Assembly: GCA_035758565.1 (NCBI GenBank)
Contig: DASTXL010000002.1
Location: forward strand, 83,118 to 147,117
Length of the DNA: 64,000 bases
Direction of reading: 5' to 3'
DNA from: Candidatus Saccharimonadales bacterium
Lineage (GTDB): Bacteria; Patescibacteriota; Saccharimonadia; Saccharimonadales; UBA10212
Below the pieces are notes generated by a model. The model saw nothing but the letters and a program-made list of their open reading frames with translations. It did not search any database and was not told the origin of the DNA. The position numbers were made by a program, and so were the translations under genes. This document shows, in pieces, positions 951-54,942 of the stretch; the stretch's first letter is position 1; each line of letters begins with the position of its first letter.

Positions 951-1073
951 TTTGTTTTGTTTTAAATTGTTTTTGTCTCTAAAGGTACGTCTAGTTTTAA
1001 GATAGACTAGCGCAAAATAAAAATCAATACTCTTATGGTTAAATTGGCGGTTATTAAACAACTAGGTGGTGGA

Positions 1074-1101
1074 GGTGGCGCCCCGGTTGTGGGGCGCCAC
1101 C
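1074..1101 (-). terminator. GC-rich perfect hairpin 3' of the Rpf-like gene
   Basis: GGTGGCGCCCC (1074-1084), loop GGTTGT, GGGGCGCCACC (1091-1101). The 11-bp perfect stem lies 2 nt beyond the TAG stop (1104-1106). There is no U-tract. Confidence 0.55.
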
Positions 1102-1103
1102 GT

Positions 1104-1925
1104 CTACACCGATCGAGACGAAATTGGCGCTGTCGAGTAGCCGCAGGCACGAGCCGTGTTGGGCCAAGGGTCAAACCCTCTGCCCGAGTAGTAGGCTCGC
1201 GAAGCGGCGATCATCTGCGCCCAGGCCGGCCAGTTGTTGGCCGTACCCCATCGCGCCATGAAGTCAGCTCCGTAACGGTTCTGGAACGGCAGATCCATCT
1301 GCAGACCGCCGTAGTAACCGTTGCCGGTGTTTGCGTTCCATGCTCCTTCGAAGCCGTGGATGCAAACGAAGCCGTGATACAGCCAATCGTGCTTGATCTT
1401 CGGTTGTGGCAGGAGCGGCTTGATCTGCTTGTCCAGCTTGACCAGTCGCTCCGTGCTTACTCGCACCGCACCGCGGGCAACTGCGCAGAGCCCTTCCGGG
1501 CCCTCGAGCAGATGCTTGCGACGCAGATCCCAGCAGGTGTAGCGCTGGTAGTGCCGGTACAGCGTCCAGCGACGCTGAGGGTTGTTCCAGTAGTGGACAG
1601 TGCCCACTCGACGACGCACCTCAGCGCACATGCGCCGAGCCTTGCTGAGCTTAGCGGAGCTAAGAACCCGCAGGCTCTTGTCCCTATGGCTAGAGGCAGC
1701 CTTGACCTGGCTGCAATGGTGGACCGCCGCCGCGGCCACGGAACTCTGGGCATCCGCTTGCTCCACCGAGGTGAAGGCAGCGAGCGCTGCCGCGGCAATA
1801 GCCGCAGCCAAGATCAGAATGAACCGACGAACCACGTCGTCTCCCTTCGGTCGATTTTTCAGGTTCTCGAGGCTATGAAAAACTAGCCCACGCTTTGTTC
1901 TGGTTACTAGTTTGTAAGCCATCAT
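1104..1925 (-). CDS. Secreted Rpf-like / transglycosylase-like domain protein (peptidoglycan hydrolase)
   Basis: The C-terminal domain CIHGFEGAWNANTGNGYYGGLQMDLPFQNRYG...WPAWAQMIAASRAYYSGRGFDPWP matches the resuscitation-promoting-factor type transglycosylase-like signature with its Glu. A signal-peptide-like stretch is present (RRFILILAAAIAAAALAAFTSVEQADAQ). A more likely start is GTG at 1835, preceded by AAGGGAG (1841-1847 on +). The ATG at 1925 lies in the low-GC flank. Confidence 0.8.
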   Translation of the reverse strand: MMAYKLVTRTKRGLVFHSLENLKNRPKGDDVVRRFILILAAAIAAAALAAFTSVEQADAQSSVAAAAVHHCSQVKAASSHRDKSLRVLSSAKLSKARRMCAEVRRRVGTVHYWNNPQRRWTLYRHYQRYTCWDLRRKHLLEGPEGLCAVARGAVRVSTERLVKLDKQIKPLLPQPKIKHDWLYHGFVCIHGFEGAWNANTGNGYYGGLQMDLPFQNRYGADFMARWGTANNWPAWAQMIAASRAYYSGRGFDPWPNTARACGYSTAPISSRSV

Positions 1926-7667: not shown

Positions 7668-7868
7668 GAACTTTCTACCATATTTGTTTTACCTCTACGA
7701 CTTAATTCTATTAAGCTCGTGCTTATTTGACAATTATAAAATTTACAATTGTTACTAACCTGTTTTAGGAGTATTGTGAGCTTAGGTTCCTGGTCGCTGG
7801 AGTTTTTTAGCGGAGGAGCTATCGGTCTTAAACAACTAGGCACAGAAGGAGGCTCGGCTTTGAGCGCA

Positions 7869-8438
7869 ATGACAGAATTCGCCGGCCTTCTCTGGTCGCG
7901 AGCAACACCTGCACGTCGTCCGCTCGGACGGCTGCATACCTGGCTGGACAGTCGGCTTCGCCCGCGCAAAGACCTGATCGGCTGGCTGTGGCGCATGTTT
8001 CACAACCGGGAGTGGCAGAAGAGCGCATTGCAGAGTGCCGCCTTCTGGGTGCTGGCCACTTTGGTCATCTCCCGTCTGCTGCACCAGCTCGGTCACGGCT
8101 GGTACGTGAGCGTCGGCGTCAGCTTGGGGATGGACAGCGTTACGTACGCCATCAACAAGCTCTGGATCTGGCGCAAGCGCAATGTCGGCATCAAGAAGAG
8201 CTGCAAACGCAATTTCAGCGCGTGGGCAGCGTTCTTCGCCTTCAACGCCGCACTGGCCTGGATGTTGATGCATCCGGCTGGCGTCGGCACCATGCACGCC
8301 CGCTACATCCTCGGCGCCGTGGGCTTCGTAGCCAACCCGGTGATCTTCACCGTCCGTGACCGGCTGGTCTTCAGCCCGGAGAAGATCCAAGAGGTATTCG
8401 CGGAGTTCCGGCAAATCCTGTTCAAGACCGTGGCGTGA
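7869..8438 (+). CDS. GtrA-like small polytopic membrane protein (high-GC islet 2)
   Basis: Four predicted TM helices and an INKLWIWRKR motif resembling the GtrA-family N-x-x-W-x-F-R box. AAGGAGG lies at 7847-7853. Start candidates are TTG 7860, ATG 7869 or ATG 7995. The track ORF start at 7749 lies in the AT-rich flank. Confidence 0.6.
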   Translation: MTEFAGLLWSRATPARRPLGRLHTWLDSRLRPRKDLIGWLWRMFHNREWQKSALQSAAFWVLATLVISRLLHQLGHGWYVSVGVSLGMDSVTYAINKLWIWRKRNVGIKKSCKRNFSAWAAFFAFNAALAWMLMHPAGVGTMHARYILGAVGFVANPVIFTVRDRLVFSPEKIQEVFAEFRQILFKTVA

Positions 8439-53496: not shown

Positions 53497-53622
53497 AATT
53501 CCTGTCAAGAGATATGAAGCTTATGCTTGCCGTAACTTAATTAATGTTGACCGATTAAAATCAGAGGAGTAGACTCTTTTTATTCCAGGCCACCCCCCCC
53601 CAAGTGGAAAGGCAGGTGCGTT

Positions 53623-54033
53623 ATGTCGGGTTACGCAATCGATGGCCTCGTCATCGAGCGCTGTGGCCGCGAGGTCTCGCTGGTCAACGTCATGGGCGCG
53701 GTTCCCAACCCCGCCTCTGTCGGTCCGATCCGACGGGAGTTCGCGAAGGTCATGGGCATGCATCCGAAGCGCGTGGTCGGCCCCTCTGGGCCGGACTCCA
53801 CCGGTTCGGTCACCGTCCTGACCGCCACGGTCCCGGAGCACCGCGAGGACGACGCAGAGCTGACGATCTGGGAGATCATCGCCCGCAAGGGCAACCTGAT
53901 CGAACCTCAGCTCACCAAGACGAGCCCGAGCAACTTCGGCTCACGTCGAAGGCGCGCGATGCGCAGCCACCCGCACGAGACGCCGCTTCCGCGGCTAACG
54001 AGTCGTGGGCGCAGCTGCGGGCACCTGCACTAG
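53623..54033 (+). CDS. Orphan ORF of high-GC islet 3 (possibly decayed at the 3' end)
   Basis: This is the only frame with a protein-like N-terminal 100 aa or so (MSGYAIDGLVIERCGREVSLVNVMGAV...AELTIWEIIARKGNLIEPQ) and high third-position GC. The last 35 aa or so are Arg/His-rich and third-position GC drops, while another frame becomes GC3-rich. A frameshifted remnant is possible. Confidence 0.35.
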   Translation: MSGYAIDGLVIERCGREVSLVNVMGAVPNPASVGPIRREFAKVMGMHPKRVVGPSGPDSTGSVTVLTATVPEHREDDAELTIWEIIARKGNLIEPQLTKTSPSNFGSRRRRAMRSHPHETPLPRLTSRGRSCGHLH

Positions 54034-54043
54034 CCGGATTCGC

Positions 54044-54068
54044 GGGGACCGGGCAGCGCCCGGTCCCC
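54044..54068 (+). terminator. GC-rich perfect hairpin after the islet-3 ORF
   Basis: GGGGACCGGGC (54044-54054), loop AGC, GCCCGGTCCCC (54058-54068). It starts 10 nt after the TAG at 54031-54033. Confidence 0.55.
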
Positions 54069-54129
54069 TCCCCTGTTGGACTGGATACCTGCCGCGGATT
54101 CTGCATTAGCAGAAGCCCGCGGTTCTCCC

Positions 54130-54138
54130 TGTTATACT
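54130..54138 (+). promoter_or_regulatory. Extended -10 (TGTTATACT) 6 nt upstream of the ATG at 54145
   Basis: An identical 9-mer occurs at 58007-58015 upstream of valS. There is no SD between the box and the ATG. Confidence 0.4.
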
Positions 54139-54144
54139 TAGCCC

Positions 54145-54942
54145 ATGGCCAAAAATATCTTGATGTGCGCTCCTGACTTTTTTGATATCGAATACGAAAT
54201 CAATGTTTGGATGCACCAAGAAAACCAAGTTGCTGAAGAAACCGCCGAAGACCAGTGGCGCAAACTTTATAAAATTTACTCTGAAAAACTTGGCTGGAAC
54301 GTCAAATTAATCGACCCCGTCAAAGGCCTGCCTGATATGGTATTTGCCACCGACTGCTGCCTGATGATAGATGACAAAATCCTACTTTCCTCTTTCCGAT
54401 TTCCGGAACGCCAGCCCGAAACCGAGCACTTTGAAAAATGGTTCCGCGCCAAAGGTTATACCAAGATCAAAAAAGCTAAAAACTTCTTCGAAGGCGGTGG
54501 CGATAATTTAATTTGTGGTAACAAGATCCTAGCCGGCCACGGCTTCCGCTCTAGCCCGGAAGCGGCCACGGAACTGCAAAGTTACTTCGACCGCGAGGTT
54601 GTCAGTCTAAAAATCGTCGACCCGCGCTTTTATCATTTGGATACTTCCCTAGCCGTGTTATCCGACGACACGGTCGCCAGCTACCTGCCGGCCCTCGACG
54701 AAGCCAGCCAAAAACGCCTAAAAGCCGCTGTTCCAAATGTTATCGAAGCCACGCTAGAAGAAGCCCAAGGCTTTGGCTTAAACGCTGTAAGTGACGGTCA
54801 CACCGTAATTACCAGCAACGAGTCAGAAAGCTTGCTCGCTAAATACCGCACCGCCGGTTTTGAAGTAATTGGCACGCCAATTTTAGAATTCCGAAAAAGC
54901 GGCGGCGGCGTTAAGTGTTTGACTCTCGACCTAGACCACTAG
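54145..54942 (+). CDS. Guanidino-group-modifying enzyme (amidinotransferase / DDAH / arginine-deiminase-fold family)
   Basis: FEGGGD, YHLDT and the C-terminal catalytic-Cys motif SGGGVKCLTL. Confidence 0.7.
   Translation: MAKNILMCAPDFFDIEYEINVWMHQENQVAEETAEDQWRKLYKIYSEKLGWNVKLIDPVKGLPDMVFATDCCLMIDDKILLSSFRFPERQPETEHFEKWFRAKGYTKIKKAKNFFEGGGDNLICGNKILAGHGFRSSPEAATELQSYFDREVVSLKIVDPRFYHLDTSLAVLSDDTVASYLPALDEASQKRLKAAVPNVIEATLEEAQGFGLNAVSDGHTVITSNESESLLAKYRTAGFEVIGTPILEFRKSGGGVKCLTLDLDH

Follow-up and report, generated by a model that had tools for sequence, protein, structure and literature searches.

Results

A GC-rich islet with a single minus-strand gene

We analysed a stretch of 64,000 nt (the window) from Candidatus Saccharimonadales bacterium (assembly GCA_035758565.1, contig DASTXL010000002.1, positions 83,118–147,117 of the forward strand) and describe here a GC-rich islet at its positions 1067–1850. 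The islet holds one minus-strand gene, which runs from a GTG at 1835 to a TAG at 1104 and codes for 243 aa. Judged from its modelled structure, the islet is probably the coding sequence (CDS) and 3' hairpin of a secreted muralytic enzyme, composed of a Sec signal peptide, a four-Cys module and a lysozyme-like domain of the Rpf fold. All elements of this unit lie on the minus strand, so that their coordinates descend in the direction of transcription.

With 63.0% GC, compared with 49.0% for the whole window, 1067–1850 ranks highest among all sliding 784-bp windows of the 64 kb (mean 0.490, standard deviation (sd) 0.033; z = 4.2). The CDS (1104–1835) has a GC content of 0.623, with 0.615, 0.520 and 0.734 at the three codon positions (GC1/2/3). 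Its GC3 exceeds by about 3.7 sd the mean of the 59 open reading frames (ORFs) of at least 100 aa in the window (0.515, sd 0.059), and the genes adjoining the islet range from 0.41 to 0.52, indicating that the composition shift is more than an amino-acid effect. Between 1030 and 1060, GC in 40-nt windows climbs from 0.38 to 0.70, placing the lower border at about 1050–1065; over about 1800–1880 it drops from 0.57 to 0.47, placing the upper border at about 1810–1880. These borders agree with those of about 1067 and about 1850 given in a first-pass annotation of this DNA, whose hand counts of G+C (40/60 at 1141–1200, 17/60 at 961–1020 and 30/60 at 1981–2040) were all exact upon recomputation, and the compositional deviation that it reported survives the sliding-window GC and GC3 checks. 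The intergenic spacer beyond the lower border, 951–1044, is AT-rich (25.5% GC).

The longest minus-strand ORF of the islet, 1104–1925, starts from an ATG, encodes 273 aa and contains the in-frame GTG at 1835–1833. Its 273-aa product is identical to the NCBI entry VFT49_02940, a 'hypothetical protein' on a 356-kb contig of a Candidatus Saccharimonadales metagenome-assembled genome (MAG), which supports the assignment of the genome to Saccharibacteria. A Shine-Dalgarno (SD) sequence, GAAGGGAG at 1848–1841, precedes the GTG within the GC-rich part, as the first-pass annotation had also read it. We rejected the ATG at 1925, the start in the NCBI model, because the additional stretch corresponds to the 3' strand of a conserved RNA helix (P4, see below) and a leader junction, and because all orthologues align at the SD and the start codon at 1835. 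The deposited N-terminus is probably 30 residues too long. An antisense ORF (1035–1886, 283 aa) was likewise rejected as a gene, since the homologues match the minus-strand frame and the orthologues have no conserved long antisense ORFs.

The predicted enzyme is a variant of the Rpf fold

The gene model, based on the ORF, its conservation and an AlphaFold2 model, divides into three parts. Residues 1–28 (1752–1835) form a signal peptide of typical Sec type, with MVRR at the N-terminus, a hydrophobic core and an ADA end before Q. Residues 29–147 (1395–1751) form a helical N-terminal module (N-module), with long helices in the AlphaFold2 model and four conserved Cys. Residues ~148–232 (1140–1394) make up the catalytic domain, in which C158, H160, E163 and C231 are invariant in 119 sequences. 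The six Cys together with the signal peptide fit an exported protein. No paralogue of the enzyme is found within the 64-kb window.

At the sequence level, the relationship to resuscitation-promoting factors (Rpf) is weak. The Pfam family PF06737 matches with 24.8 bits (E = 3.6e-5, profile positions 17–76 of 77), short of its cutoff of 27, and the NCBIfam RpfC model matches with 30 bits as opposed to its cutoff of 200. A PHROG 'transglycosylase' family matches at 1e-5, PDB Rpf chains match the islet protein at E ~4e-4, and about half of the homologues carry a precomputed PF06737 match. At the level of the fold the likeness is far clearer. The AlphaFold2 model, built on 119 homologues, has a mean predicted local distance difference test score (pLDDT) of 85.1, exceeding 90 through most of the catalytic domain, and Foldseek superposes residues ~150–232 on RpfB (3eo5/4emn), RpfE (4cge) and RpfC (4ow1) with a target-normalised template modelling (TM) score of ~0.85, a root-mean-square deviation of 1.4–1.9 A and 30% identity. 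All 15 best Foldseek matches in the PDB are Rpf chains at a probability of 1.00, with target-normalised TM scores mostly of 0.64–0.86 and lower for two-domain RpfB entries. The Rpf-type signature claimed by the first-pass annotation therefore stands for the fold and is sub-threshold for the sequence.

In the model, E163 closes the helix 150–163, and the HMMER alignment sets it two residues after the canonical Glu of the Rpf CES motif. Owing to this offset and to the motif CIHxxEGxW in place of CESGGNW, we regard the predicted islet protein as an Rpf-fold variant and not as a certified Rpf. The earlier description of a single muralytic gene with its own SD, GTG and U-tract-less hairpin is in line with the one predicted secreted Rpf-fold protein gene that we find.

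The gene is shared by one clade of soil Saccharimonadales

Besides the window, 12 contigs carry the gene at the same site between tlyA and crp (L001, L003, L004, L005, L007, L088, L105, L106 and L168–L171), giving thirteen independent assemblies from NCBI, JGI, ENA and Logan. The gene order is S6-SSB-S18-EF-P-(2',5'-ligase)-TlyA, followed by the islet gene and then by a Crp-like regulator or a beta-lactamase-fold gene. The 12 orthologous CDS measured have a GC content of 0.58–0.65 against 0.46–0.525 in their own flanks, with a GC3 of 0.64–0.83, and this excess is equal in the N-module and the catalytic domain.

The EF-P proteins of the gene-bearing relatives are 76–84% identical to that of the window over their full length, and the partial EF-P of L005 is 71% identical. 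Synonymous sites between the window and its sister loci are saturated: the proportion of synonymous differences (pS) is 0.72–0.84 in EF-P and TlyA and 0.55–0.71 in the islet gene, the latter being read as near saturation because GC3 is skewed. Divergence of the N-module follows that of the flanks (Spearman 0.58), and the same two groups of loci are seen in EF-P, in the N-module and in the leader RNA described below.

The common locus and common GC content in the sister genomes, the saturated synonymous sites and the co-divergence with the flanks point to an old gene of the whole clade. In terms of sequence comparison, it appears to be stable and vertically inherited in one clade of soil Saccharimonadales, and not a recent private import. 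The first-pass annotation had suggested an acquisition from the host; taken as a recent import, that reading falls by its own terms, as sister genomes have the nearest homologues, with locus and composition unchanged, and no donor exceeds ~82% amino acid identity, a value that concerns the catalytic domain only. The window islet does deviate from the composition of its own genome, yet so do all measured orthologues despite saturated synonymous divergence (dS), and the GC excess is thus not diagnostic of transfer. Since it persists through saturating divergence, it is a maintained feature and not an un-ameliorated scar of transfer. The excess must be kept by selection or, less likely, by repeated replacement, and GC-richness is a maintained property of whatever coding sequence occupies the site.

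Two of the loci depart from the common protein architecture. L004 (4340–5119, protein P0016) retains the leader (96.8 bits) and, in the protein, the signal peptide and an N-module of 57% identity, joined to an unrelated C-terminal domain (CIAGVETNH...GKYKGKYQYDNGTW) that has no Pfam match; the CDS is still GC-rich, with a GC3 of 0.82. This locus appears to be a domain swap inside the same RNA framework. In L088 (919–1957) the leader (51.6 bits), the end pairing and the 3' hairpin are present, and the protein combines a Pro/Thr-rich N-region with a divergent catalytic motif (CIHHYEGSWTDTGAPFWGGVQMD). Lysin variants seem, from this locus, to be exchanged or remodelled within the cassette.

A conserved structured leader precedes the gene

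The 286 bp from tlyA to the start codon are of ordinary composition (43% GC), yet strongly conserved across the orthologous loci. They include a sigma-70-like promoter at 2080–2108, with a -35 box TTGAAA (2108–2103), a 17-nt spacer and a -10 box TACCCT (2085–2080). The pattern TTGACA/TTGAAA-N17-TAnnnT stands at a fixed distance from the leader in the aligned orthologous loci, and we infer that 2080–2108 acts as a promoter; a consensus promoter scanner reported nothing at these positions.

Between the putative promoter and the start codon lies a leader of ~240 nt, whose first element is the hairpin P1-P2-P3 (1994–2057), in which the tip varies and an asymmetric internal loop, CGAAUWAUAUUU, is conserved. 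Helix P4 (1916–1990) pairs AAGCC at 1990–1986 with GGCUU at 1920–1916 and encloses the variable hairpin P5, a 24-nt inverted repeat (1929–1952/1958–1981) that is reproduced in the single-sequence fold. Hairpin P6, GGCUA...UAGCC at 1871–1888, stands ~20–40 nt ahead of the SD and is followed by a conserved G(U/A)ACCU(C)GACA; a hairpin is found at the P6 position in all loci, with unrelated stem sequences (read by eye). Finally, the start codon itself lies in a small hairpin, GACGA-CGUGGU-UCGUC (1841–1826), with GTG 1835–1833 in the loop, which together with the SD spans 1826–1848. The stem of this hairpin, which also turned up in a scan of the sequence, occurs as GACGA/UCGUC, as CGACCG/CGGUCG (L001) and as CGACCA/UGGUCG (L169). 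The rejected ATG at 1925 sits inside this conserved leader, in the junction ahead of the 3' strand of P4 (CGAUGGCUUACA).

RNAalifold on the leader gives 27 pairs, 22 of them with compensatory change. The P1-P3 alignment (13 sequences) has 92.9% of its cells paired and compensatory change at 18 of 21 pairs, compared with 27–47% paired in slid controls; for P4 (12 sequences) the values are 100%, 4 of 5 pairs and 13–47%. Taken alone, the window leader folds into the same helices at -87.2 kcal/mol (z = -5.1).

A covariance model of P1-P3 (R1) scores 100.7 bits in the window, where its match spans 1983–2079, and matches all 13 gene-bearing Saccharibacteria loci. Among held-out loci it scores 83.8 bits for L169, 45.0 for L171 and 29.4 for L170, and matches the truncated L168 in part (24.1 bits). 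R1 has no match elsewhere in the window, and the 64 kb contain no second copy of the leader. It is also blank in 77 Thermoleophilia-type loci and one contig labelled Burkholderiales, in three phage-like contigs and in 80 viral loci, and among 77 tlyA loci without the gene it gives nothing save one chance-level match (L120, E = 0.16). Searched against Rfam 15, neither the leader of the window nor those of five orthologous loci gave a match, whether at gathering score or with E relaxed to 5 or 10.

Taken together, these data describe a conserved leader outside Rfam, supported by covariation for P1-P4. Three other accounts of it were rejected. A known riboswitch or small RNA, in particular the ydaO type that senses cyclic di-AMP (c-di-AMP), is contradicted by the lack of an Rfam match, and 12 Thermoleophilia and phage loci gave none either. 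Joint transfer of the leader with the gene does not agree with the blank R1 searches in Thermoleophilia-type, phage-like and IMG/VR loci, nor with the absence of the leader DNA pattern from IMG/VR. A local hairpin at the 5' end, P0 (CGGU/ACCG), is not universal, and its conservation is better explained by the long-range pairing described next.

The two predicted ends of the mRNA are complementary

Two nucleotides past the TAG stop, a GC hairpin (1074–1101) pairs GGTGGCGCCCC at 1101–1091 with GGGGCGCCACC at 1084–1074, forming 11 perfect pairs around a 6-nt loop. No T run follows, and no terminator-like U tract was found in the unit; the perfect 11-bp hairpin reported by the first-pass annotation is hence borne out. 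Its 73-nt context folds at -33.9 kcal/mol (z = -4.8). The window and the 11 other loci checked all have a GC-rich hairpin, ~11–16 bp long and perfectly or almost perfectly paired, directly past the stop and without a U tract; its stem sequences vary between locus groups.

A second, long-range pairing joins the predicted mRNA ends into what we call a clamp. Its 5' arm, UGGCGGUUGUUAGAC at 2060–2074, begins ~7 nt past the -10 box, which places it at the expected transcription start or directly beside it, and is complementary to 1045–1059, within the 3' arm UUGUUUAAUAACCGCCA (1045–1061), which lies 13 nt past the GC hairpin. The pair of arms is found at the same positions in all 11 loci that include both ends, with 14–15 bp and in at least five sequence variants (for example UGGCGGUUGUUAGA, GACGGUUACUAGAG, GACGGAUACCAGAG, GACGGCUGAUAAACC and GACGGCCGCCGAGG). 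Compensatory change affects 12 of 17 pairs, and the 14 core pairs are nearly always formed, as compared with 25–47% paired in slid controls. At most 6 of 500 shuffles equalled the observed arm pairing in 8 of the 11 loci; the gapless shuffle test was weaker for L003, L105 and L169, where 457, 165 and 41 of 500 shuffles did so. Of the eight non-Watson-Crick cells in the core, six are G.U in the sense RNA, which favours a constraint at the RNA level over one at the DNA level.

These results indicate that complementarity between the 5' end of the mRNA and the sequence past its 3' hairpin is maintained by compensatory change, and the missing U tract at the GC hairpin is compatible with read-through to the 3' arm. 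The Thermoleophilia loci have no flanking complementary repeat beyond chance, and no remnant of the arm motif was found at empty sites. Promoter, leader, start-codon hairpin and end pairing are confined to the Saccharibacteria copies of the gene.

One subgroup of loci (L088, L105 and L106) has a second conserved hairpin, GCCUGCAGGGCAGGC, beyond the 3' arm and ~100 nt from the stop codon. This hairpin may terminate transcription of the convergent crp gene, or the unit may in fact end there.

Distribution and kinship of the catalytic domain

We surveyed 80 metagenomic loci with a TlyA orthologue, and among these the islet gene is present only in the closest relatives, defined by the full-length EF-P identities given above. 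In at least 13 loci of more distant relatives, whose EF-P identity does not exceed ~72%, the TlyA...Crp-bPH synteny is preserved and the gene is missing. The site is empty in L097, where TlyA abuts Crp, and in L087, with a gap of 102 bp; L091, L110, L123, L124, L128, L136, L143, L149, L151, L157 and L163 have a 218-aa PF00156 phosphoribosyltransferase-like gene (MYFASRVQAGRMLA...) between tlyA and crp. The search for an empty site proposed by the first-pass annotation has thus yielded more distant Saccharibacteria that lack the gene there, the site being either vacant or taken by the phosphoribosyltransferase-like gene.

The subfamily of the catalytic domain has 463 matches among GTDB species genomes. 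The best 80, which we examined, belong to Gaiellaceae, Gaiellales, Thermoleophilia or Actinomycetota, except for two Saccharibacteria and one contig labelled Burkholderiales. In the Thermoleophilia/Gaiellales loci that make up most of this set, the GC content of the gene equals that of the genome (0.69–0.77), and the gene context in Gaiellaceae is chromosomal and ordinary. The contig labelled Burkholderiales (L042, JAICUZ010000120.1) is 7.5 kb long with a GC content of 0.70, carries a Gaiellaceae-like member that adjoins L060 in the tree, and is probably a mis-binned actinobacterial contig.

Phages carry the domain as well. It occurs on 147 IMG/VR contigs with a GC content of 0.42–0.73, and three phage-like metagenome contigs (L165, L166 and L167) carry short forms of the enzyme. 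P0022, from a phage-like contig of 66.5% GC, is 55% identical over aa 100–232, and hence also over part of the N-module. The family is absent from INPHARED (50,697 deposited phage genomes). The phage-type enzymes measure 180–195 aa (L165, L166, L167 and L172–L251), and their contigs encode rIIB, DNA ligase, Mu gp48, DnaB, primase, amidase and CHAP proteins. The phage copies look like an uncharacterised family of soil-phage lysins.

Outside Saccharibacteria, the closest relative of the window copy is 72% identical in the trimmed catalytic-domain alignment and up to ~81% in the best local stretch. As for the actinobacterial link made by the first-pass annotation, the subfamily is indeed dominated by high-GC Actinomycetota; nesting within them would be one possible reading of the star-like tree, and phages are at least as plausible a source as a host. 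The star-like tree and the uninformative identity matrix are compatible with either direction of transfer, with host or phage as donor and with one or several events.

Neighbouring gene and further GC-rich islets

The beta-lactamase-fold gene next to the islet (PF13354, 112 bits) has this position in just two loci, the window and L001. In L170, crp and bPH separate it from the islet gene, and the other loci have no copy nearby, so the envelope-directed cluster of the two genes suggested by the first-pass annotation is not upheld: their adjacency is not conserved across loci. On direct reading, the spacer 951–1044 contains a promoter-like TTGATT-N17-TATCTT ahead of the beta-lactamase-like gene. 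That gene is therefore probably transcribed separately from the muralytic gene, from a promoter of its own.

Two other GC-rich islets were seen in the window. The one at 7749–8438 (plus strand) is a 229-aa ORF with a GC content of 0.59 and the highest GC3 of the window (0.748); it has a weak match to the GtrA/DPMS transmembrane family (PF04138, 18 bits, below cutoff), and the high-GC stretch runs on to ~9000, into the 3' end of an FtsK-like gene. The other, 53560–54180, lies immediately upstream of groES and reaches a GC content of 0.70 in 200-bp windows. It includes a 136-aa ORF (53623–54033, plus strand) without a Pfam match and, 10 nt past it, a perfect 11-bp GC hairpin (54044–54068) without a U tract, repeating the layout of the first islet, a GC-rich ORF followed by a GC hairpin. 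For this third islet, no Rfam match and no flanking inverted repeat of at least 11 nt were found.

Discussion

Interpretation and rival explanations

The best overall explanation, to which we give a probability of roughly 0.6, is that the islet is a clade-level Rpf-fold gene with an anciently acquired catalytic domain, framed by conserved RNA elements. Because the subfamily of the catalytic domain is at home in Thermoleophilia/Gaiellales and in soil phages, the most likely history is a single ancient acquisition of at least that domain before the clade diversified, for which we see the odds as slightly better than even.

Several points weigh against this explanation. The N-module has no detectable homologue in Thermoleophilia, and yet the N-terminal two thirds of the protein are equally GC-rich; moreover, if the GC excess is selected, it drops out as evidence for transfer. 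The catalytic-domain tree is star-like (plain neighbour joining, 89 columns, no bootstrap values), and the Saccharibacteria copies are 52–75% identical to one another, with best Thermoleophilia matches of 60–82%. The invariant E163 is at best a candidate for the catalytic Glu, since a gapless alignment puts it two residues away from the canonical CES Glu. With regard to the RNA, the 3' arms were picked by best complementarity, which inflates the percentage paired but not the diversity of variants; P6 and the start-codon hairpin were judged by eye only; and the transcript ends, the closure of the clamp on one transcript, the read-through of the hairpin and any ligand of the leader are all predictions from sequence.

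The rival explanations differ mainly in how they account for the GC excess. If the gene were a recent private acquisition from a high-GC actinobacterial host, its outlying GC and GC3, the centring of the domain family in Gaiellales and a gene GC of 0.62, between a donor-type ~0.72 and the 0.49 of the recipient, would all follow from un-ameliorated donor composition. This is highly improbable, given that the same site and the same excess are found in 12 other contigs, which with EF-P 71–84% identical are not one population, that synonymous sites are saturated and divergence is congruent with the flanks, and that the identities outside Saccharibacteria, at most 72% trimmed or ~81% local, concern the catalytic domain alone. 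An assembly chimera or a contaminating actinobacterial fragment, to which the sharp compositional borders might point, is effectively excluded by the agreement of thirteen independent assemblies; in addition, the borders fall at the SD and at the sequence after the hairpin, within the span of the conserved complementary arms. Conversely, there may have been no transfer in at all: the gene would be native to the clade, or have passed from it to Thermoleophilia and phages, and its GC content would come from selection on amino acids (Ala, Arg, Gly, Trp, Cys) and on mRNA structure or stability. The persistence of the excess through saturating divergence, its extension over the Saccharibacteria-specific N-module, the confinement of leader and clamp to Saccharibacteria and the unresolved tree speak for this view. 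We nevertheless consider it distinctly unlikely, as nearly all of the best 80 genome matches come from Thermoleophilia, where the gene has native composition, and just two from Saccharibacteria species representatives, the distant Saccharibacteria lack the gene at a conserved site, and the family is broad in phages.

Recurrent replacement would treat promoter, leader and clamp as a fixed cassette in which the CDS is repeatedly swapped for lysins of high-GC donors or phages, keeping GC high. L004, with leader and N-module joined to an unrelated GC-rich C-terminal domain, and L088, with the leader ahead of a Pro/Thr-rich N-region and a divergent catalytic motif, speak for it; the catalytic domains are as near to Thermoleophilia as to each other, and phage carriers with a GC content of 0.55–0.65 exist. 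As a general account it is very unlikely in view of the N-module, whose identity tracks that of the flanks in the same two groups, of the lack of any donor match above ~82% for any copy, and of the absence of mobile-element genes nearby. A last alternative concerns the arms. Acting at the DNA level, they could flank an invertible (phase-variable) segment as its inverted repeats, or be relics of the terminal repeats of a mobile cassette, with recombination keeping the two copies alike. The arms bracket leader, CDS and hairpin with the promoter just outside, the geometry of an ON/OFF inversion, and recombination between repeats would also produce concerted change. Such a function is very doubtful, however, because 13 of 13 assemblies have one orientation, no recombinase gene is nearby, six of the eight non-Watson-Crick core cells read as G.U pairs in the sense transcript, the predicted transcription start is where the 5' arm begins, and the 64-kb window has no second copy of leader or enzyme.

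Proposed mechanism

On the explanation of an old clade-level gene in a conserved RNA framework, transcription would begin at the conserved sigma-70-like promoter, and the first ~15 nt of the transcript would pair with ~15 nt past the 3' GC hairpin, a complementarity backed by covariation. With its ends paired, and with the GC hairpin, the mRNA would be closed and protected from nucleases at either end, as in the hbs mRNA of B. subtilis. The ~240-nt leader would fold into P1-P3, P4/P5 and P6 (with covariation for P1-P4), may sense some ligand or protein and could thereby control access to the SD and the start codon. A small hairpin next to the SD would enclose the start codon and thereby gate the translation of an enzyme that could lyse the cell itself. 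The exported enzyme would then cut the glycan strands of peptidoglycan, either of the cell itself or of an actinobacterial host.

Clamp, 3' hairpin and GC-enriched CDS together suggest, as a hypothesis, selection for a nuclease-resistant, long-lived mRNA, which would explain how the GC3 excess survived saturating divergence. A bolder proposal, speculative and in our opinion unlikely, is that of an 'armoured, gated' mRNA: a new class of riboswitch-like leader, the end clamp, the 3' GC hairpin and a CDS whose GC-richness is upheld by selection for nuclease resistance would allow an ultra-small epibiont to store a long-lived, translationally silent message for a wall-cutting enzyme until a signal, for instance contact with a host or the end of dormancy, releases it, with Gaiellales/Thermoleophilia as hosts. 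Were it true, the kinship of the enzyme would point to these groups as the hosts of this clade of soil Saccharimonadales.

To our knowledge, the hosts of soil Saccharibacteria, and the way in which these cells breach or remodel walls, are largely unknown, and almost no regulatory RNAs have been described in Patescibacteria. A clade-specific Rpf-fold enzyme shared with Gaiellales and soil phages offers a concrete host-range hypothesis and a candidate effector; in light of its kinship with the Gaiellales enzymes, a Gaiellales host is a testable idea and not a result. The RNA framework is a testable example of post-transcriptional control in Patescibacteria and an orphan riboswitch candidate with a clear output gene. 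With regard to methods, a GC/GC3 island that persists through saturating divergence calls for caution, as it is no tool for dating a transfer.

Comparison with known systems

We found no relevant literature linking Rpf, riboswitches or Gaiellales with Saccharibacteria. The comparison is made element by element. One relative is the phage-encoded subfamily (IMG/VR; phrog_29757 'transglycosylase'), which has the same catalytic domain at 45–75% identity, in short proteins with signal-peptide-like N-termini; the phage copies P0022 and P0031 also share the last part of the N-module. Unlike the islet gene, the phage copies match the composition of their own contigs, have neither leader nor clamp, and none is found in INPHARED.

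With Rpf (PF06737; RpfB, RpfC and RpfE of M. tuberculosis) the islet domain shares the compact lysozyme-like fold, the NTGNGYYGGLQ motif and a pair of Cys that brackets the domain, as well as secretion, which is predicted here, and the occurrence in Actinomycetota and phages. It differs in the motif of the N-terminal helix, CIHxxEGxW as opposed to (A/Q)CESGGNW, with the invariant Glu shifted by two residues, in a longer C-terminal half (FQxxYGxDFxxRWGTADNWPxWAQ) and in a Pfam score below gathering. Its accessory module is helical with four Cys, not DUF348/G5 or LysM, and its host phylum is Saccharibacteria. On the basis of the modelled structure, the enzyme appears to be a new, sub-threshold Rpf-fold variant in an unexpected phylum.

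Control of muralytic genes by their leaders has precedents. A ydaO-type c-di-AMP riboswitch occurs in the 5' untranslated region (UTR) of rpfA and of other wall-hydrolase genes in Streptomyces and Corynebacterium (PMC10117811, PMC9960051), and rpfA is under the control of this riboswitch in Streptomyces (PMC10117811). The islet unit resembles it in placing a long structured leader before an Rpf-type or wall-hydrolase gene and in the proposed control of a dangerous muralytic enzyme by RNA. The islet leader, in contrast, has no similarity to RF00379, consists of one long three-helix hairpin, P4/P5 and P6, and lacks a terminator-type expression platform, its start codon lying in a hairpin instead.

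For the clamp, the nearest parallel is the hbs mRNA of B. subtilis, in which a 14-bp interaction between 5' and 3' UTR modulates RNase Y cleavage in the leader (PMC5737220). Both cases involve a helix of 14–15 bp between the extreme 5' region and the 3' UTR of a short monocistronic mRNA with a strong SD, and the expected role is likewise protection from RNase Y and RNase J. The islet pairing differs in that it is supported by covariation across 11 loci and not by experiment, and is joined by a GC hairpin, a GC-enriched CDS and a conserved leader. Leader and 5'-3' clamp thus appear, from their patterns of covariation, to be a new form of known kinds of post-transcriptional control.

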